Part shown: in pieces, positions 13,775 to 57,730 of the stretch | How the letters are laid out: each line of letters opens with the position of its first letter | How positions within the stretch are numbered: the stretch's first letter is position 1 | Made by a program: the position numbers and the translations under genes | The notes under the pieces: model-generated | The model's database searches: none | Told to the model about the DNA's origin: nothing | Seen by the model: only the letters and a program-made list of their open reading frames with translations | From: Escherichia coli | GTDB taxonomy: Bacteria; Pseudomonadota; Gammaproteobacteria; Enterobacterales; Enterobacteriaceae | Strand: one strand, 5' to 3' | DNA length: 64,000 bases | Assembly: GCF_046105845.1 (NCBI RefSeq) | Contig: NZ_CP151004.1

Positions 13775-13807
13775 GCCGGATGCGACGCTAGCCGCGTCTT
13801 ATCCGGC
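13775..13807. repeat. REP element between convergent fucO and xni
   Basis: gccggatgcgacgctagccgcgtcttatccggc, canonical REP-type palindrome. Confidence 0.6.
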
Positions 13808-23568: not shown

Positions 23569-24921
23569 ATGAGTTCTTTAAGTCAGGCTGCGAGCAGTGT
23601 GGAAAAACGCACAAATGCTCGTTACTGGATAGTGGTGATGTTGTTTATCGTCACATCCTTCAACTACGGCGACCGCGCTACGCTCTCTATCGCCGGTTCG
23701 GAAATGGCCAAAGATATCGGCCTTGATCCTGTGGGAATGGGCTATGTGTTCTCTGCTTTCTCATGGGCTTATGTTATCGGGCAGATCCCTGGTGGCTGGT
23801 TGCTGGATCGTTTTGGTTCAAAACGCGTCTACTTCTGGTCGATCTTTATCTGGTCGATGTTTACCTTGCTGCAAGGCTTCGTCGATATCTTTAGTGGATT
23901 CGGCATTATCGTTGCCCTGTTTACGCTGCGCTTCCTGGTCGGGCTTGCTGAAGCGCCATCTTTCCCCGGCAACAGTCGCATTGTTGCGGCCTGGTTTCCG
24001 GCGCAGGAAAGGGGAACGGCGGTGTCGATTTTTAACTCCGCTCAATACTTCGCAACGGTGATCTTCGCGCCGATTATGGGCTGGCTGACGCATGAAGTGG
24101 GCTGGTCACACGTCTTTTTCTTTATGGGCGGTCTGGGCATTGTCATCAGCTTTATCTGGTTGAAAGTCATCCACGAGCCAAATCAACATCCGGGTGTAAA
24201 TCAGAAAGAGCTGGAGTACATCGCTGCGGGTGGCGCGCTGATCAATATGGATCAGCAAAACACCAAAGTTAAAGTACCGTTCAGCGTGAAGTGGGGGCAG
24301 ATCAAACAGCTGCTCGGGTCACGGATGATGATCGGCGTTTATATCGGTCAGTACTGTATCAACGCCCTGACTTACTTTTTCATTACCTGGTTTCCGGTTT
24401 ATCTGGTGCAGGCGCGTGGGATGTCGATTCTGAAAGCGGGCTTTGTGGCTTCCGTTCCGGCGGTTTGCGGTTTTATCGGCGGTGTGCTGGGTGGGATTAT
24501 TTCCGACTGGCTGATGCGCCGCACGGGATCGCTGAACATTGCGCGTAAAACACCGATCGTAATGGGCATGTTGCTGTCGATGGTGATGGTGTTCTGCAAC
24601 TACGTCAACGTTGAGTGGATGATCATCGGCTTTATGGCGCTGGCCTTCTTCGGTAAGGGCATCGGGGCGCTGGGTTGGGCAGTAATGGCAGATACCGCGC
24701 CAAAAGAGATCAGCGGTCTTTCCGGTGGCCTGTTCAACATGTTCGGTAACATTTCTGGCATCGTCACGCCAATCGCAATTGGTTATATCGTTGGCACGAC
24801 TGGCTCCTTTAATGGGGCGCTGATTTATGTTGGTGTTCATGCCTTAATCGCGGTACTGAGCTACCTGGTGCTGGTGGGCGATATCAAGCGTATCGAGCTG
24901 AAACCTGTCGCGGGGCAATAA
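23569..24921 (+). CDS. gudP: D-glucarate/galactarate permease GudP (MFS, anion:cation symporter)
   Basis: 450 aa MFS transporter heading the gudPXD operon. Confidence 0.9.
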
Positions 24922-24922
24922 G

Positions 24923-26263
24923 ATGACGACACAATCCAGTCCTGTTATTACTGATATGAAAGTCATTCCGGTCGCCGGGCACGATAGCATGTTGCTTAAT
25001 ATTGGTGGTGCACATAACGCATATTTCACCCGCAATATTGTGGTACTCACCGATAACGCCGGGCATACCGGCATTGGTGAAGCGCCAGGCGGAGAGGTGA
25101 TTTATCAGACGCTTGCCGATGCTATTCCGATGGTTCTGGGCCAGGAAGTTGCGCGCCTGAATAAAGTGGTCCAGCAGGTGCATAAAGGTAATCAGGCCGC
25201 CGATTTTGATACCTTCGGTAAAGGCGCCTGGACTTTTGAATTGCGCGTTAATGCCGTGGCGGCGCTGGAAGCCGCCTTGCTTGACCTGCTAGGTAAGGCG
25301 CTGAATGTTCCGGTCTGCGAACTGTTAGGGCCAGGCAAGCAACGCGATGCTATTACCGTCCTCGGTTATCTGTTTTATATCGGTGATCGGACCAAAACCG
25401 ATCTTCCTTATCTGGAAAATACGCCGGGCAACCATGAGTGGTATCAATTGCGGCATCAGAAAGCGATGAACAGCGACGCCGTTGTGCGTCTGGCGGAAGC
25501 TTCACAGGATCGCTATGGCTTTAAAGATTTCAAACTTAAGGGCGGAGTGTTACCTGGCGAGCAAGAAATCGACACTGTTCGTGCATTGAAGAAACGCTTC
25601 CCGGATGCGCGGATTACCGTTGATCCCAACGGAGCATGGCTGCTTGATGAAGCTATTTCTCTGTGCAAAGGGCTGAATGATGTTCTCACCTATGCCGAAG
25701 ATCCATGTGGCGCAGAACAGGGTTTCTCCGGACGTGAAGTGATGGCGGAGTTTCGACGGGCGACCGGCTTGCCCGTCGCGACTAACATGATCGCCACCAA
25801 CTGGCGCGAAATGGGCCATGCGGTGATGCTCAATGCGGTAGATATTCCACTTGCCGATCCGCACTTCTGGACGCTTTCCGGTGCAGTCCGCGTGGCGCAA
25901 CTTTGCGACGACTGGGGGCTGACCTGGGGCTGCCATTCCAATAACCACTTTGATATCTCTCTGGCGATGTTTACCCATGTGGGTGCGGCGGCACCGGGTA
26001 ATCCTACCGCTATCGATACCCACTGGATTTGGCAGGAGGGCGATTGTCGCCTGACCAAAAATCCGCTGGAGATTAAAAACGGAAAAATTGCCGTTCCTGA
26101 TGCGCCCGGTCTGGGCGTGGAACTGGACTGGGAGCAGGTACAAAAGGCGCATGAGGCCTATAAACGTCTGCCTGGCGGTGCGCGTAACGACGCGGGCCCG
26201 ATGCAGTACCTGCTCCCCGGCTGGACCTTTGACCGTAAACGTCCCGTTTTCGGCCGTCATTGA
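24923..26263 (+). CDS. gudX: glucarate dehydratase-related protein GudX (enolase superfamily)
   Basis: 446 aa; paralogous to downstream gudD (shared blocks [41 protein letters not shown]). Confidence 0.9.
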
Positions 26264-26283
26264 TTTTGAAAAAGGACATAAAG

Positions 26284-27624
26284 ATGAGTTCTCAATTTTC
26301 GACGCCTGTTGTTACTGAAATGCAGGTCATCCCGGTGGCGGGCCATGACAGTATGCTGATGAATCTGAGTGGTGCACACGCACCGTTCTTCACGCGTAAT
26401 ATTGTGATTATCAAAGATAATTCTGGTCACACCGGCGTAGGGGAAATTCCCGGCGGCGAGAAAATCCGTAAAACGCTGGAAGATGCGATTCCGCTAGTGG
26501 TGGGTAAAACGCTGGGTGAATACAAAAACGTTCTGACGCTGGTGCGTAATACATTTGCCGATCGTGATGCCGGCGGGCGCGGTTTGCAGACATTTGATTT
26601 GCGGACCACTATTCATGTGGTTACCGGTATAGAAGCGGCAATGCTGGATCTGCTGGGGCAGCATCTGGGGGTTAACGTGGCATCGCTGCTGGGCGATGGT
26701 CAACAGCGTAGCGAAGTCGAAATGCTCGGTTATCTGTTCTTCGTCGGTAATCGCAAAGCCACACCGCTGCCGTATCAAAGTCAGCCGGATGATAAATGTG
26801 ACTGGTATCGCCTGCGTCATGAAGAAGCGATGACGCCGGATGCGGTGGTGCGCCTGGCGGAAGCGGCGTATGAAAAATATGGCTTCAACGATTTCAAACT
26901 GAAGGGCGGTGTACTGGCCGGGGAAGAAGAAGCAGAATCTATTGTGGCACTGGCGCAACGCTTCCCACAGGCGCGTATTACCCTCGATCCTAACGGTGCC
27001 TGGTCGCTGAACGAAGCGATTAAAATTGGTAAATACCTGAAAGGTTCGCTGGCTTATGCAGAAGATCCGTGTGGTGCGGAGCAAGGTTTCTCCGGGCGTG
27101 AAGTGATGGCAGAGTTCCGTCGCGCAACTGGCCTGCCGACCGCAACCAATATGATCGCCACCGACTGGCGGCAGATGGGCCATACGCTCTCCCTGCAATC
27201 CGTTGATATCCCGCTGGCGGATCCGCATTTCTGGACGATGCAAGGTTCGGTACGTGTGGCGCAAATGTGTCATGAATTTGGCCTGACCTGGGGTTCACAC
27301 TCTAACAACCACTTCGATATTTCCCTGGCGATGTTTACCCATGTAGCCGCTGCTGCACCGGGTAAAATTACTGCTATTGATACGCACTGGATCTGGCAGG
27401 AAGGCAATCAGCGTCTGACCAAAGAACCGTTTGAGATCAAAGGCGGGCTGGTACAGGTGCCGCAAAAACCAGGATTGGGCGTAGAAATCGATATGGATCA
27501 GGTGATGAAAGCCCACGAGCTGTATCAGAAACATGGGCTTGGTGCGCGTGACGATGCGATGGGAATGCAGTACCTGATTCCTGGCTGGACGTTTGATAAC
27601 AAGCGCCCGTGCATGGTGCGTTAA
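26284..27624 (+). CDS. gudD: D-glucarate dehydratase GudD (enolase superfamily)
   Basis: ORF 26260 trimmed to [20 protein letters not shown] start; enolase-superfamily metal-binding residues. Confidence 0.9.
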
Positions 27625-27689
27625 GACAGAAAACCAAAACCGGCTTCATAAGAAGTCGGTTTGAGATTACTGACGAAGTGGTTTACGGG

Positions 27690-27830
27690 GCCGGTTTTCC
27701 CCCTCGCCCTTTCAGGGAGAGGGGCGGGGTGAGGGTAATCATTCGCACTTGCGTTGGCCTGTTCCCCTCACCCTAACCCTCTCCCCGGAGGGGCGAGGGG
27801 ACTGTCTGTGCTGCTCCCAGCATTGGCATT
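27690..27830. repeat. GC-rich inverted-repeat element between convergent gudD and barA
   Basis: Two copies of a C/G-tract module in inverted orientation: ccccctcgccctttcagggagaggggcggggtgaggg ... cccctcaccctaaccctctccccggaggggcgagggga. Confidence 0.55.
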
Positions 27831-27864
27831 GGACGGAACCTATTTTGACTCGACAAGACGTCCA

Positions 27865-30621
27865 TTACCCGAGAATTTTGCTGGCTTCGCGCGCGACATT
27901 ATCCATCTCGTCCAACAGTTCCAGCAGCTCCGGCTCCAAATCTTCTTCTTTAGTACCGCTACGTAGCTGTTGTTCGATCAGCTGGCAGAGATTCTTCATA
28001 CGCGGCACACCGCTATAGCCGCAACTGCCATGCAGTTTATGAATCAAATCAACCAGGCCTTCCGGGTTTTCTCCAACCAGCTGTTCCTCAACTTTGTTGC
28101 GAACTTCAGGCAGGAAATCGAGTAACATTTGCAGCATATCGCGCGCTAAATCGGTTTTTCCTGCTGCCTGGCGTAGTGCCAGTTGCCAGTCGAGGGTCGC
28201 ATTCGGGTTCACCACAATTTCGTTGACTTCGGGCGTCACGACGCGAGAGGAAATACCGCTGCCAGGTTTGTAGCGCAACAACAAATTATGCAATCGCTCT
28301 TCTTCAATCGGTTTCGCCAGATAATCGCTCATCCCTGCGCCAAGCAGCTTCTCTTTTTGCCCGGCCATTGCATGCGCCGTTACCGCGATAACTGGCGTTT
28401 GTTGCTGATGGGGGAGCTGGTGGATGAGTTCGCAGGCCCGAATGCCGTCCATGTCCGGCATTTGAATATCCATTAAGATCAAATCGAACGGCATCTGTTT
28501 CGCCCGTTCAACCGCCTGATGCCCGCTATCGCAAAGTTCCACATGTTGCACCATATCTTCCAGCAATGCGCCGATAAGTTTCAGGTTAGCGGGGTTGTCA
28601 TCAACCGCCATGACTGTCATTGCCAGCTTACTTTCATCGGTTACAGGCAAAAGCGTGTTTTGTTTGTGATGACAAAATTCCGTCAGGGCAGGTAACAGGC
28701 GCGTAGGTGTTAATGGTTTCAGCAGACACGCGCCGATACCATCTTGCTTAAGTTTTTCAGCATTGACTTGTGCATGGCAAGGAAGTGCCAGCATCAGAAA
28801 ATCGGTCATCGATACCGCTTTCGCTAATCGCTCATGTTGCATTGTTAGCGGCTCGCGGAAGGTCACCGCAATGCCTAATAACATCATGTCGTAATGCGCG
28901 GGAGGCAGCGCGGAGAACGTTGGGCTATAAACCACTTCCAGCGGCGTTTCACTTAAAATATCCAGCGTGCATTGCGCTGCTGCGGAGTTTGGTTCGACAT
29001 AGGCCAGGCGCTTGCCGGCTAGGCACTGGGTGGATGGCCCTTCGATAATAATGTTCGGGTTCAGATCGAGATTAATGTGGAACCAGAAAGTTGAACCGCG
29101 ATTCGGCTGGCTATGGAACGAAATATCGCCGCCCATTTCATTAACCAGTTTTTGTGTAATCACCAGCCCCAGCCCGGTGCCACCATGACGGCGGGAAATA
29201 CTGGCATCAGCCTGTCGGAAGGCCTGGAATAAGCGCGATTGATCGCGTTCAGGAATACCAATGCCGGTATCCCGAATCTGCACTTCAATCTGCACTTTAG
29301 TATTACTCAGCGCACGTTTTTCTACCAGAATATCAATGTTGCCATTCTCGGTGAATTTAATTGCATTCCCCACCAGGTTAGTGATGATTTGCTGTAATCG
29401 CAGTGGGTCGCCAATTACGTTATCGGGCACGTCGCTCTTAATATTGAGCGTCAGTTCCAGCCCTTTATCGTGAGAAGAATGTGCCAGCAGGGTAACGACT
29501 TCATCCAGCGTGCTGCGTAGTGGGAATGGAATACTTTCCAGAATCAGCTTACCTGCTTCCAGTTTCGAGAAGTCGAGAACATCATTAATAATTGCCAGCA
29601 AATTATTTGCCGAACGTTCAATCGTATTCAGGTGATCGCGCTGCGTTGGTGTTAATTCTGTTTTCAGCGTCAGGCGGGTAAAGCCAATAACACCATTCAG
29701 TGGTGTACGCAGCTCGTGTGACATATTTGCCAGAAACTCGGATTTAATACGCGCCGCTTCCTGGGCGCGCTTTTTCGCCAGATCCAACTCAACGTTCTGA
29801 ATTTCCATCTGCTCCAGCGTTTCACGCAGATCGGACGTCGCCTGGTCGATATTGTGCTGCATCTCTTCGTGATAAGCAGCCAGCGACATTGCCATCGAGT
29901 TGATACCGTTTTTCAGCATATCCAGCTCGCCGAGCATAAATCCTTCCACCCGGCTGTCGAGTTGCCCGCGACGGATGCGGTCGACGGTATTCACCATATT
30001 GCGAATCGGACCGGTTACATCGCGCATTAAGCGCCAGCCAAAAATAAGCGCAATACCGATACAAAACAGCATCATCACGCTGGAAATAAAGATCTCTTTA
30101 TATTGCTGCAAGCGAACCGATTTAAGATCCAGCTCAAGCGCAATATATCCCAACATATTTTGACTATTTTTGGCATCGCTACTGGGCGATTCGTCGGGGG
30201 AGTAACTCTCAGAAATAATCGGCGTGCGGAGGATCATAATATCGCCGTCACGAGTGACAGTGAGTTGGCGAGGAAACGGCACGTTGCTGCCGAGCTGCAT
30301 TGATGAGGGATCAAGATGAAAATTGGAGGTGACAAAGAGTCGGTTATTTTCATCATAAACCGAAATCGCGCGAACAATATCGGAATGGCGACGATGCAGT
30401 ACGCTTATTAACTGACCGATAGATTCGCGATTTTGCAGGCTCATGCCATATTCAGTAGAAACTGCAAGCGGCTCAATAATGCTGGCTCCGGCATCTTCCA
30501 GTTGACGCTGCAAGTCGTTATAGCGATGCACAACGAAAAAGATACTCAGCAATAAACCAATAAGGACGGTCGGTGCCAGGATCAGAATCATCATGCGTGC
30601 GCGCAGGCTGTAGTTGGTCAT
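27865..30621 (-). CDS. barA: hybrid sensor histidine kinase BarA (tripartite HK-REC-HPt)
   Basis: 918 aa; H-box SHELRTPLN, receiver [15 protein letters not shown]-terminal HPt. Confidence 0.9.
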
Positions 30622-30677
30622 GGAGTTCCGTTATGGGACAATTAAGGTCACACTGTTAAATTGAGAAAGTCTCGCCA

Positions 30678-31979
30678 ATGGCGCAATTCTACTCTGCAAA
30701 ACGACGCACGACGACGCGTCAGATCATAACTGTTTCAGTCAACGACCTCGACTCTTTTGGTCAGGGCGTGGCACGACATAACGGCAAAGCGTTATTTATT
30801 CCTGGATTATTGCCACAGGAAAACGCGGAAGTTACTGTTACTGAAGATAAAAAACAATACGCCCGCGCTAAAGTCGTACGCCGGTTAAGCGATAGCCCGG
30901 AACGCGAAACGCCACGCTGCCCTCATTTTGGCGTATGCGGTGGCTGTCAGCAACAACACGCCAGCGAGGATTTACAGCAGCGAAGCAAAAGTGCGGCACT
31001 CGCCCGATTAATGAAACACGAAGTCTCTGAAGTGATCGCCGATGTTCCCTGGGGCTATCGCCGTCGCGCGCGTTTAAGTTTGAACTACTTACCGAAAACA
31101 CAGCAACTTCAGATGGGGTTTCGCAAAGCGGGCTCCAGTGACATTGTCGACGTTAAACAATGTCCCATTTTAGTGCCCCAACTTGAAGCATTGCTGCCCA
31201 AAGTCAGGGCATGCCTGGGCAGCTTACAAGCTATGCGCCATCTTGGTCATGTTGAACTGGTACAGGCAACCAGCGGCACGCTGATGATTTTGCGCCATAC
31301 CGCACCGCTAAGTTCGGCTGATCGCGAAAAACTGGAACGCTTTTCGCATTCTGAAGGCCTGGATCTGTATCTCGCCCCCGATAGTGAGATACTCGAAACC
31401 GTCTCTGGTGAGATGCCCTGGTATGACTCAAACGGGTTGCGCTTAACTTTTAGCCCGCGCGATTTTATTCAGGTCAATGCGGGTGTGAACCAAAAAATGG
31501 TAGCGCGTGCGTTGGAATGGCTGGATGTGCAACCTGAAGATCGCGTACTGGATCTGTTCTGCGGTATGGGCAACTTTACACTGCCATTGGCGACACAAGC
31601 TGCCAGTGTGGTCGGTGTAGAAGGTGTTCCGGCGCTGGTGGAAAAAGGCCAGCAGAATGCGCGTCTTAATGGCTTACAGAATGTGACGTTTTATCACGAA
31701 AATCTTGAAGAAGATGTCACAAAGCAGCCGTGGGCGAAAAACGGCTTCGATAAAGTGTTGCTGGACCCGGCGCGAGCAGGTGCCGCAGGTGTTATGCAGC
31801 AAATTATAAAACTGGAACCTATTCGTATAGTTTATGTATCCTGTAACCCTGCAACGCTGGCTCGGGATAGCGAAGCGTTATTAAAAGCAGGATATACCAT
31901 TGCGCGACTGGCGATGCTGGATATGTTCCCACACACGGGACATCTGGAATCGATGGTACTTTTCTCGCGCGTTAAATAG
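30678..31979 (+). CDS. rlmD: 23S rRNA (uracil1939-C5)-methyltransferase RlmD (RumA)
   Basis: 433 aa; TRAM domain, Fe-S cysteines ([14 protein letters not shown]), SAM-MTase. Confidence 0.9.
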
Positions 31980-32026
31980 TTGCGATTTGCCGATTTCGGC
32001 AGGTCTGGTCCCTAAAGGAGAGGACG

Positions 32027-34261
32027 ATGGTTGCGGTAAGAAGTGCACATATCAATAAGGCTGGTGAATTTGATCCGGAAAAATGGATCGCAAGTCTGGG
32101 TATTACCAGCCAGAAGTCGTGTGAGTGCTTAGCCGAAACCTGGGCGTATTGTCTGCAACAGACGCAGGGGCATCCGGATGCCAGTCTGTTATTGTGGCGT
32201 GGTGTTGAGATGGTGGAGATCCTCTCGACATTAAGTATGGACATTGACACGCTGCGGGCGGCGCTGCTGTTCCCTCTGGCCGATGCCAACGTAGTCAGCG
32301 AAGATGTGCTGCGTGAGTGCGTCGGTAAGTCGGTCGTTAACCTTATTCACGGCGTGCGTGATATGGCGGCGATCCGCCAGCTGAAAGCGACGCATACCGA
32401 TTCTGTTTCCTCCGAACAGGTCGATAACGTTCGCCGGATGTTATTGGCGATGGTCGATGATTTTCGCTGCGTGGTCATCAAACTGGCGGAGCGTATTGCT
32501 CATCTGCGCGAAGTAAAAGACGCGCCGGAAGATGAACGCGTACTGGCGGCAAAAGAGTGCACCAATATCTACGCGCCGTTGGCGAACCGTCTTGGGATTG
32601 GACAACTGAAATGGGAGCTGGAAGATTACTGCTTCCGTTATCTCCACCCGACCGAATACAAACGCATCGCAAAACTGCTGCATGAACGCCGTCTCGACCG
32701 CGAACACTATATCGAAGAGTTTGTCGGCCATCTGCGCGCTGAGATGAAAGCTGAAGGCGTTAAAGCTGAAGTGTATGGTCGTCCGAAACACATCTACAGC
32801 ATCTGGCGCAAAATGCAGAAAAAGAACCTCGCCTTCGATGAGCTGTTTGATGTGCGTGCGGTACGTATTGTCGCCGAGCGTTTACAGGATTGTTATGCCG
32901 CACTGGGGATAGTGCACACTCACTATCGCCACCTGCCGGATGAGTTTGACGATTACGTCGCTAACCCGAAACCAAACGGTTATCAGTCTATTCATACCGT
33001 GGTTCTGGGACCAGGTGGCAAAACCGTAGAGATCCAAATCCGCACCAAACAGATGCATGAAGATGCAGAGTTGGGTGTTGCTGCGCACTGGAAATATAAA
33101 GAAGGCGCGGCAGCTGGCGGCGCACGTTCGGGACATGAAGACCGAATTGCCTGGCTGCGTAAACTGATTGCGTGGCAGGAAGAGATGGCTGATTCCGGCG
33201 AAATGCTCGACGAAGTACGCAGCCAGGTCTTTGACGACCGGGTGTACGTCTTTACGCCGAAAGGTGACGTCGTTGATTTGCCTGCGGGATCAACGCCGCT
33301 GGACTTCGCTTACCACATCCACAGTGATGTCGGACACCGCTGCATCGGGGCAAAAATAGGCGGGCGCATTGTGCCGTTCACCTACCAGCTGCAGATGGGC
33401 GACCAGATTGAAATTATTACCCAGAAACAGCCGAACCCCAGCCGTGACTGGTTAAACCCAAACCTCGGTTACGTCACAACCAGCCGTGGGCGTTCGAAAA
33501 TTCACGCCTGGTTCCGTAAACAGGACCGTGACAAAAACATTCTGGCTGGGCGGCAAATCCTTGACGACGAGCTGGAACATCTGGGGATCAGCCTGAAAGA
33601 AGCAGAAAAACATCTGCTGCCGCGTTACAACTTCAATGATGTCGACGAGTTGCTGGCGGCAATTGGTGGCGGGGATATCCGTCTCAATCAGATGGTGAAC
33701 TTCCTGCAATCGCAATTTAATAAGCCGAGTGCCGAAGAGCAGGACGCCGCCGCGCTGAAACAGCTTCAGCAAAAAAGCTATACGCCGCAAAACCGCAGTA
33801 AAGATAACGGTCGTGTGGTGGTTGAAGGTGTCGGTAACCTGATGCACCACATCGCGCGCTGCTGCCAGCCGATTCCTGGAGATGAGATTGTCGGCTTCAT
33901 TACCCAGGGACGCGGTATTTCAGTACACCGCGCCGATTGCGAACAACTGGCGGAACTGCGCTCCCATGCGCCAGAACGTATTGTTGATGCGGTATGGGGC
34001 GAGAGCTACTCCGCCGGATATTCGCTGGTGGTCCGCGTGGTGGCTAATGATCGTAGTGGGTTGTTACGTGATATCACGACCATTCTCGCCAACGAGAAGG
34101 TGAACGTACTTGGCGTTGCCAGCCGTAGCGACACCAAACAGCAACTGGCGACCATCGACATGACCATTGAGATTTACAACCTGCAAGTGCTGGGTCGCGT
34201 GCTGGGTAAACTTAACCAGGTGCCGGATGTTATCGACGCGCGTCGGTTGCACGGGAGTTAG
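32027..34261 (+). CDS. relA: GTP pyrophosphokinase RelA ((p)ppGpp synthetase I)
   Basis: 744 aa; RelA/SpoT synthetase domain and C-terminal TGS/ACT region. Confidence 0.95.
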   Translation: MVAVRSAHINKAGEFDPEKWIASLGITSQKSCECLAETWAYCLQQTQGHPDASLLLWRGVEMVEILSTLSMDIDTLRAALLFPLADANVVSEDVLRECVGKSVVNLIHGVRDMAAIRQLKATHTDSVSSEQVDNVRRMLLAMVDDFRCVVIKLAERIAHLREVKDAPEDERVLAAKECTNIYAPLANRLGIGQLKWELEDYCFRYLHPTEYKRIAKLLHERRLDREHYIEEFVGHLRAEMKAEGVKAEVYGRPKHIYSIWRKMQKKNLAFDELFDVRAVRIVAERLQDCYAALGIVHTHYRHLPDEFDDYVANPKPNGYQSIHTVVLGPGGKTVEIQIRTKQMHEDAELGVAAHWKYKEGAAAGGARSGHEDRIAWLRKLIAWQEEMADSGEMLDEVRSQVFDDRVYVFTPKGDVVDLPAGSTPLDFAYHIHSDVGHRCIGAKIGGRIVPFTYQLQMGDQIEIITQKQPNPSRDWLNPNLGYVTTSRGRSKIHAWFRKQDRDKNILAGRQILDDELEHLGISLKEAEKHLLPRYNFNDVDELLAAIGGGDIRLNQMVNFLQSQFNKPSAEEQDAAALKQLQQKSYTPQNRSKDNGRVVVEGVGNLMHHIARCCQPIPGDEIVGFITQGRGISVHRADCEQLAELRSHAPERIVDAVWGESYSAGYSLVVRVVANDRSGLLRDITTILANEKVNVLGVASRSDTKQQLATIDMTIEIYNLQVLGRVLGKLNQVPDVIDARRLHGS

Positions 34262-57690: not shown

Positions 57691-57730
57691 GTAGGCCTGA
57701 TAAGACGTGTGAGCGTCGCATCAGGCAAGG
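57691..57730. repeat. REP element between cysI and cysH
   Basis: gtaggcctgataagacgtgtgagcgtcgcatcaggcaagg. Confidence 0.55.

Follow-up and report, generated by a model that had tools for sequence, protein, structure and literature searches.

The family of repeats closest to the element described here has carried three names in succession, of which BoxC reportedly goes back to Bergler 1992 and Bachellier 1999, and PIT to Hoyne et al. 2000 and Hoyne & Maher 2002. The repeat was named first BoxC, next PIT (potential intrastrand triplex) element and then TMECO (Holder et al. 2015, PMC4666352), and its published consensus reads 5'-CCCTCNCCC N3-6 GGGNGAGGG N3 GGGNGAGGG[G/T/C/-]-3' (PMC4666352). MG1655 contains 23 copies, with five inverted pairs that each join a type A and a type B arm, and the type designated 'mm' is the commonest in K-12 (PMC4666352). 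The motif was counted 3,610 times in 262 proteobacterial genomes, and variability at loci carrying it significantly exceeded that of control intergenic regions (Holder et al. 2015, PMC4666352).

Two other groups of repeats resemble the element in part. REP and BIME elements are likewise short GC-rich palindromic intergenic repeats, often located past the ends of convergent or co-directional genes, but are unrelated to it in sequence. REPs have a partner RAYT transposase as well as documented mRNA-stabilising and attenuating effects, whereas for BoxC we know of no partner protein or such mRNA effect. The ERIC/IRU and Correia/NEMIS MITEs of enterobacteria and Neisseria share with the element a size of ~100-130 bp, inverted-repeat ends, a long RNA hairpin, an intergenic location and variability between strains. 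In contrast to these MITEs, the element exhibits no target-site duplication and has no known transposase, and each of its arms is a three-tract triplex motif in its own right, also found as a single copy.

Here we describe an element in the intergenic spacer between the convergent genes gudD and barA, within a stretch of 64,000 nucleotides of Escherichia coli DNA (the window). The element belongs to the already described BoxC/PIT/TMECO family and is nothing new in kind, but it sits at a locus where K-12 carries a REP.

An inverted BoxC/PIT/TMECO pair between gudD and barA

Positions 27690-27810 of the window are 100% identical in CFSAN061763 and in 19 other genomes among the matches listed. 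RefSeq annotation of the identical region confirms the site given in the earlier note, between the converging gudD and barA genes, and the element lies wholly inside the 240-bp spacer that separates their stop codons (27624 / 27865). The features of the locus, with the basis for each, are as follows.

26284..27624, plus strand: gudD (glucarate dehydratase), genomic context; RefSeq annotation of the identical region (CFSAN061763) and ORF list.
27865..30621, minus strand: barA (sensor histidine kinase), genomic context; RefSeq annotation of the identical region (CFSAN061763) and ORF list.
27689..27812, no strand assigned: whole repeat unit, comprising the inverted BoxC/PIT/TMECO pair, its edges (left ..G.TTTTC, right GACTGnCTGnGC) and the central spacer; limits of conservation in the alignment with four K-12 pairs.
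27701..27736, plus strand: left arm, CCCTCGCCC-TTTCA-GGGAGAGGG-GCG-GGGTGAGGG-T, of 'mm' type with one G/A mismatch in the Watson-Crick stem; regular expression of the TMECO consensus.
27737..27763, no strand assigned: central spacer (AATCATTCGCACTTGCGTTGGCCTGTT), kept among E. coli paired copies and not across genera; alignment with the K-12 pairs and cross-phylum pairs.
27764..27799, minus strand: right arm, read on the minus strand as CCCTCGCCC-CTCCG-GGGAGAGGG-TTA-GGGTGAGGG-G, type A 'mm'; consensus regular expression and Table 1 of PMC4666352.
27637..27662, plus strand: small hairpin, AACCGGCTTC-ATAA-GAAGTCGGTT followed by TGAG, 13 nt past the gudD stop; DNA fold of -9.7 kcal/mol (z -5.0) and alignments.
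27647..27846, no strand assigned: allele-specific segment that cannot be aligned to the REP-bearing spacer; alignment with K-12, O157, O103, CD306 and MS20675.
27797..27802, plus strand: GGGGAC closing the right arm, one of the two deletion end points in CFSAN018748; alignment.

The published consensus has exactly two matches in the window, at 27701-27735 (+) and 27765-27799 (-). K-12 TMECO no. 23, a type A 'mm' copy, matches the right arm at every base (Table 1, PMC4666352). The left arm is one base off K-12 TMECO no. 10, a type B 'mm' copy, the single substitution lying in the second loop, where GCG stands in place of the published CCG. The C-stem CCCTCGCCC contains the one G/A mismatch of the published 'mm' type. 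The two arms lie close together on opposite strands, with a TTA loop in the right arm and a CCG-like (GCG) loop in the left arm, and their geometry, a 64-bp arm-to-arm register, is that of the K-12 pairs 10+11 and 12+13. The double C-tract motif CCCTCNCCC-N1-8-CCCTCNCCC also occurs just twice in the 64-kb window, both times within the element, and was absent from 100 shuffles.

The arrangement of tracts within each arm was compared by inspection with that of a class II purine-motif intrastrand triplex, in which G-stem 1 is paired with the C-stem and mirrored by G-stem 2, and the triads are G·G:C, A·A:T and T·A:T. Alignment of GGGAGAGGG with reversed GGGTGAGGG yields allowed triads only. Judged on its letters, the element carries every defining feature of BoxC/PIT/TMECO that a sequence can test, and it has in common with the family the exact arm consensus, an intergenic and multi-copy distribution, the inverted A+B pair, a shared central spacer and a strain-variable locus. 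In the part of Table S8 in the supplement of PMC4666352 that was covered, neither barA, gudD nor the exact left-arm sequence is found.

The C- and G-tract modules quoted in the earlier note are present as described, although the distance between them is 26-29 bp and not about 40 bp. Two ORFs that start within the element (27749..28018 and 27754..27966) had been called spurious; both exist, have TTG starts, take an antisense course into barA and lack any RefSeq annotation. A Pfam search of the two ORFs gave no match above the cut-off. Residues 11-33 of ORF 27749-28018 (window 27779-27847, through the right arm) have a sub-threshold similarity to PF23692 YmjE-like (E = 0.048, 14 bits vs a cut-off of 27), which may reflect a YmjE-like small-protein family overlapping BoxC-derived sequence, or else noise; ymjE was looked for at the K-12 fabI-ycjD BoxC locus and is not there. 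With permissive thresholds, Rfam returned only eukaryotic miRNA precursor models, all of them sub-threshold (best 37.1 bits vs a gathering score of 77.5), and these were rejected as reflecting the generic shape of a long hairpin.

Related copies in E. coli genomes

The earlier note had advised a search for further copies, and blastn against 5,426 complete E. coli genomes establishes a genome-wide repeat family: matches are present in 5,399 of the genomes, the median genome having 15 places, and 67,790 of the 67,816 places are chromosomal vs 26 on plasmids. Five K-12 pair loci were fetched, four of which (ygfF/gcvP, alx/sstT, fepB/entC and hrpB/mrcB) were aligned with the window. Besides the arms, the window and these four pairs have in common a central spacer with the consensus TAAnTnTTCGCACCnGTGCTGGCCTGTTC and short edges, G.TTTTC at the left end and GACTGnCTGAGC at the right. 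Since the edges and the spacer are shared in addition to the arms, the repeated unit in the window extends over ~27689-27812.

The closest K-12 relative is the ygfF/gcvP pair, with 90.1% identity over 100% of 27695-27805 (111 nt; blastn). Approximately 2,400 E. coli genomes lack both ygfF and the adjoining BoxC pair, and a carrier of the gudD/barA pair, strain 144, is one of them. There, bglA is next to gcvP, the spacer between the two genes contains a REP-like palindrome, and homology with K-12 at ygfF/gcvP resumes ~35 bp from the pair. Although neither ygfF nor its pair is present in strain 144, the pairs at the two loci share only 90% identity, and a recent transfer from ygfF/gcvP to gudD/barA, which was considered, is unsupported.

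Folding of the pair and of its single arms

A repeat search detects an inverted repeat with 39-nt arms (27700-27738 / 27762-27800) that are 82% complementary and separated by 23 nt, and each arm is also partly self-complementary. Both RNA strands fold into a single interrupted hairpin of ~100 nt, with predicted energies of -92.2 (+) and -79.5 (-) kcal/mol (z -6.1 and -5.7); none of the shuffled sequences was as stable as the element. For single-stranded DNA (27696-27804), the two strands gave -35 and -35.7 kcal/mol (z -5.3 and -6.0), and the whole pair (-35 kcal/mol) compares with -10.2 and -10.8 kcal/mol for the single arms. The expectation that each module is partly palindromic and that the pair can form one long hairpin or cruciform is therefore upheld by the repeat search and by the RNA and DNA folds, including the check on both RNA strands for which the earlier note had called.

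The G-tracts also suggest a second type of structure, in which they would fold into G-quadruplex (G4) DNA or RNA and the element would act through it. Four runs of at least three G residues, spaced by 1-7 nt, are indeed present on both strands (27715-27735 (+) and 27764-27786 (-)), and the 64-kb window contains only one further motif of this kind. However, CD and NMR of the isolated E. coli oligonucleotide, near-identical to the arms described here and derived from K-12, revealed many imino signals that the authors read as a triplex and not as a G4 (PMC4666352). With the complementary strand only the duplex was present, and in vivo DMS footprinting gave no protection, such that a triplex was not detected in the cell either (PMC4666352). 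In addition, the C-rich complement within the same arm competes strongly by Watson-Crick pairing, as indicated by the DNA fold. Thus, of the G-quadruplex-like structure envisaged in the earlier note, the motif stands, on both strands, whereas the folding is unsupported, the published NMR favouring a triplex and the probing of the duplex and in vivo showing neither structure; we consider it extremely improbable that the element acts as a G4 former. Purine-motif triplexes do not form in RNA (PMC4666352), so that at the RNA level only the hairpin is relevant. The third G-quadruplex motif of the window, GGGCATCGGGGCGCTGGGTTGGG, is at 24657-24679 (+), just upstream of ORF 24923-26263 (gudX).

The pair and the 3' ends of gudD and barA

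A long hairpin between converging genes could stop RNA polymerase or, in the manner of a REP, block 3'-5' exonucleases, and the earlier note had proposed a bidirectional terminator or mRNA-stabilising element for gudD and barA. The very high stability of the RNA hairpin on both strands and its position between two convergent stop codons are compatible with such a role. Moreover, no T-run terminator is seen for barA in this allele, the pair being the first large structure, 64 nt past the barA stop. In other strains a REP occupies the equivalent place, and REPs stabilise upstream mRNA.

An intrinsic (Rho-independent) terminator, however, comprises a U-rich tract as well as a GC-rich hairpin, and only the hairpin is present here: no U-run follows it on either strand, the tails being ACUGUCUGUGCU (+) and GAAAACCGGCCC (-). 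A consensus scan of 27400-28100 for promoters and terminators found nothing, with 0 terminator-like sites, and a separate hairpin of gudD (27637-27662) precedes the element. At gcvP in K-12, the sister copy lies beyond a canonical terminator (GGCGCTTCGGCGCC then T5), which is sited between the gcvP stop and the pair, and other family copies are found both upstream of genes and within the divergent fepB/entC promoter region. One natural strain, CFSAN018748, lacks the pair. Reporter tests of PIT elements, in the summary that PMC4666352 gives of Hoyne & Maher 2002, revealed no promoter or terminator activity, and RNA polymerase was unaffected. These observations speak against a bidirectional terminator, and we infer that the pair has no terminator function at gudD/barA.

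The hairpin at 27637-27662 is likely to be the 3' hairpin of gudD, although it falls short of a strict T-run rule for terminators. Its stem reads CCGGCTTC/GAAGTCGG in the window and CCGGCTC/GAGCCGG in K-12 and in the ST2747 sub-allele (see below), with differences at the top of the stem and in the loop. As a stable hairpin is present at this position in each allele, the alignments suggest that it, rather than the repeat, may represent the conserved 3' structure of gudD. A secondary role of the pair as a REP-like barrier to 3' exonucleases is possible, and is rendered slightly more attractive by the occurrence of a hairpin-forming repeat of either kind at this site in all but one genome. Taken as a whole, we regard a terminator or 3' stabiliser role for the pair as unlikely.

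Allelic variation and a deletion at the gudD/barA spacer

In K-12, O157, O103, CD306 and MS20675, the spacer is of nearly equal length but unrelated in sequence over ~27647-27846. The REP core consensus GCCKGATGCGRCG, reportedly from Stern et al. 1984, has an exact match in the K-12 gudD/barA spacer and no match in 27625-27864 of the window. The same core is present elsewhere in the window, at 13775-13787 and 57714-57726, and with one mismatch at 594, 26835 and 51212 (five matches vs 0.5 expected; the one at 26835, inside gudD, is probably due to chance). REPs of the ordinary kind are thus present in the strain, though the gudD/barA spacer lacks one.

The pair is present at this locus in 188 of the 5,426 complete E. 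coli genomes, and a REP element occupies the spacer in ~96%, the REP content of the remainder being read from the strains that were aligned (K-12, O157, O103, CD306 and MS20675). The flanks of the pair (27647-27697 and 27803-27850) are single copy and are present in 189 of the 5,426 genomes, always at the gudD/barA locus. A copying of the flanks from another E. coli locus is thereby ruled out, there being no donor locus within E. coli. Of the 189 carriers, 152 match the window exactly in the left flank, whereas 37 represent a sub-allele, with ST2747 and HCP5S3_I2 as examples from the genomes inspected. In the ST2747-type sub-allele the left arm has decayed (CAAGGAGAGGACCG) while the CCG loop is kept, and the GCG of the window is therefore a derived form of type B. 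Identity with K-12 per 100 bp is 94-97% over gudX/gudD (24100-27600) and 98-100% over barA/rlmD (27858-32200). The spacer coincides with this step in divergence and may possibly mark the edge of a recombined tract.

A third allele is found in CFSAN018748, where the spacer measures 130 bp and the whole pair is missing through the loss of 110 bp between two GGGGAC 6-mers, of which the first lies in the left flank and the second closes the right arm. The left-flank counterpart is GGGGAC in the ST2747-type sub-allele and GGGGCC in the window (27687-27692). Because CFSAN018748 keeps the right edge of the unit (ACTGTCTGTGC) and has flanks of the sub-allele type, it represents a deletion and not a site that was never occupied. 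The loss has the form that would be expected of slippage between short direct repeats joined by a hairpin. This resembles the behaviour of long palindromes and quasi-palindromes, which are hot spots for deletion (slipped mispairing between flanking direct repeats; SbcCD-sensitive), in that the 110-bp GGGGAC deletion removes the inverted repeat save for the GGGGAC that closes the right arm. The palindrome is interrupted by the central spacer and by mismatched loops, which is the form expected to be tolerated. In contrast to such hot spots, the mechanism at this locus is read from a single natural allele.

The pair as a possible mobile unit within and beyond E. coli

Inverted arms that bound a repeated unit could also be the terminal inverted repeats of a MITE-like, non-autonomous mobile element, recognised by a putative transposase or nuclease and inserted into the gudD/barA spacer. 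To survey the wider distribution of the unit, a single scan of 100,044 species genomes was run for GGGTGAGGG-N10-40-CCCTCACCCTAACCCTCTCCC and returned at least 120 loci, which among the matches listed are distributed over Alpha-, Beta- and Gammaproteobacteria, Geobacter, Planctomycetota, Gemmatimonadetes, Anaerolineae and Acidobacteriota MAGs. In these matches taken together with the window and the four K-12 pairs, 41 convergent pairs from ~18 genomes fit the E. coli consensus on both arms. Full pairs are found in Proteobacteria (alpha, beta and gamma) and Planctomycetota (including a Phycisphaeraceae MAG), whereas in the other taxa only the scan pattern is present. This breadth beyond Proteobacteria is only a modest extension of Holder et al.

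Several aspects of this distribution would suit a mobile unit. Alpha-, Beta- and Gammaproteobacteria share the same arms with Planctomycetota, and the whole unit, spacer and edges included, is repeated within the genomes of E. coli and Serratia oryzae, the latter with at least 19 pattern matches and 9 full pairs with near-identical spacers and flanks. Central spacers are alike within a genome (E. coli; Serratia oryzae) and unlike between genera, which suggests that the pair was amplified as a unit, and presence or absence varies between strains. The asymmetry of the pair is strict: exactly one arm carries TTA in 40 of the 41 pairs and both arms in none, vs TTA in 39 of the 61 unpaired copies of the same loci (~64%). 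The A+B asymmetry of the E. coli pairs therefore appears to be general among the sequences compared.

In a Planctomycetota MAG (VGYW01000037.1, 3395-3853 of the extracted locus), the A+B pair is arranged as a tandem array of 3.9 copies of a 117-bp unit with 97% matches. In every unit the two arms conform to the E. coli consensus, and a further pair lies ~5 kb away on the same contig.

Against a MITE, no target-site duplication or other flanking direct repeat is present around the unit in five E. coli loci, and there is no clean empty site. The sole 'empty' allele keeps the right edge and is explained by microhomology deletion, while the alternative allele is a replacement by unrelated sequence and not an empty site. 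Plasmids account for 26 of the 67,816 places, and no link to mobile elements is reported in PMC4666352. A neighbouring protein that recurs beside the motif, comparable to RAYT beside REPs, was sought by clustering 1,321 stop-to-stop ORFs within 1.2 kb of the at least 120 loci among the matches listed, a sample in which one master copy per genome is easily missed, and no family recurred beyond 3-4 loci. Given the lack of a recurrent neighbour protein and of a target-site duplication, together with the rarity of plasmid copies, a mobile element is a very unlikely account of the pair.

Discussion

The element between gudD and barA is very probably a non-coding BoxC/PIT/TMECO inverted pair that behaves as a passive, structure-prone passenger, with local instability as its main consequence. 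We suggest that the pair occupies a safe position, past the stop codons of both convergent genes, gudD and barA. As single-stranded DNA or RNA, its arms, one with a TTA and the other with a CCG-like loop, would pair across the ~27-bp spacer into the ~100-nt interrupted hairpin, which is predicted to be much more stable than two separate arm hairpins, while each G-rich arm alone may form a purine-motif intrastrand triplex in vitro (per PMC4666352). At the level of the locus, the spacer has been swapped wholesale between lineages, with REP element and pair as the alternatives, and the pair can also be lost through slippage when the hairpin brings short direct repeats close to each other. Hairpin formation would thereby drive the deletion.

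The presence of either a REP or the pair at the same place in nearly all genomes could, however, reflect selection for some structured element and not neutrality. A bolder proposal is that the functional or mobile unit is the A+B pair and not the triplex motif alone, i.e. a heterodimeric hairpin cassette that is amplified within genomes and interchangeable with REPs at convergent 3' ends. It draws on the near identity of the arms from Enterobacteriaceae to Planctomycetota, and we consider it improbable. If true, it would imply either a protein that recognises or mobilises the sequence specifically, or selection for any strong hairpin at such junctions.

For annotation, the element should be labelled as a BoxC/PIT/TMECO pair and not as a terminator, and the two ORFs that start inside it are to be ignored. 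The BoxC family has been known since the 1990s and its biophysics since 2015, and the identification changes little for the locus itself. The polymorphic spacer and the deletion allele fit the published link of the family with instability (PMC4666352), and the polymorphism at gudD/barA is a detail of the locus without a match in the literature searched. The spacer thus offers a clean natural example of family-linked instability, a modest addition, and its REP, pair and microhomology-deletion alleles constitute near-isogenic natural material for questions of mRNA 3' ends and replication.
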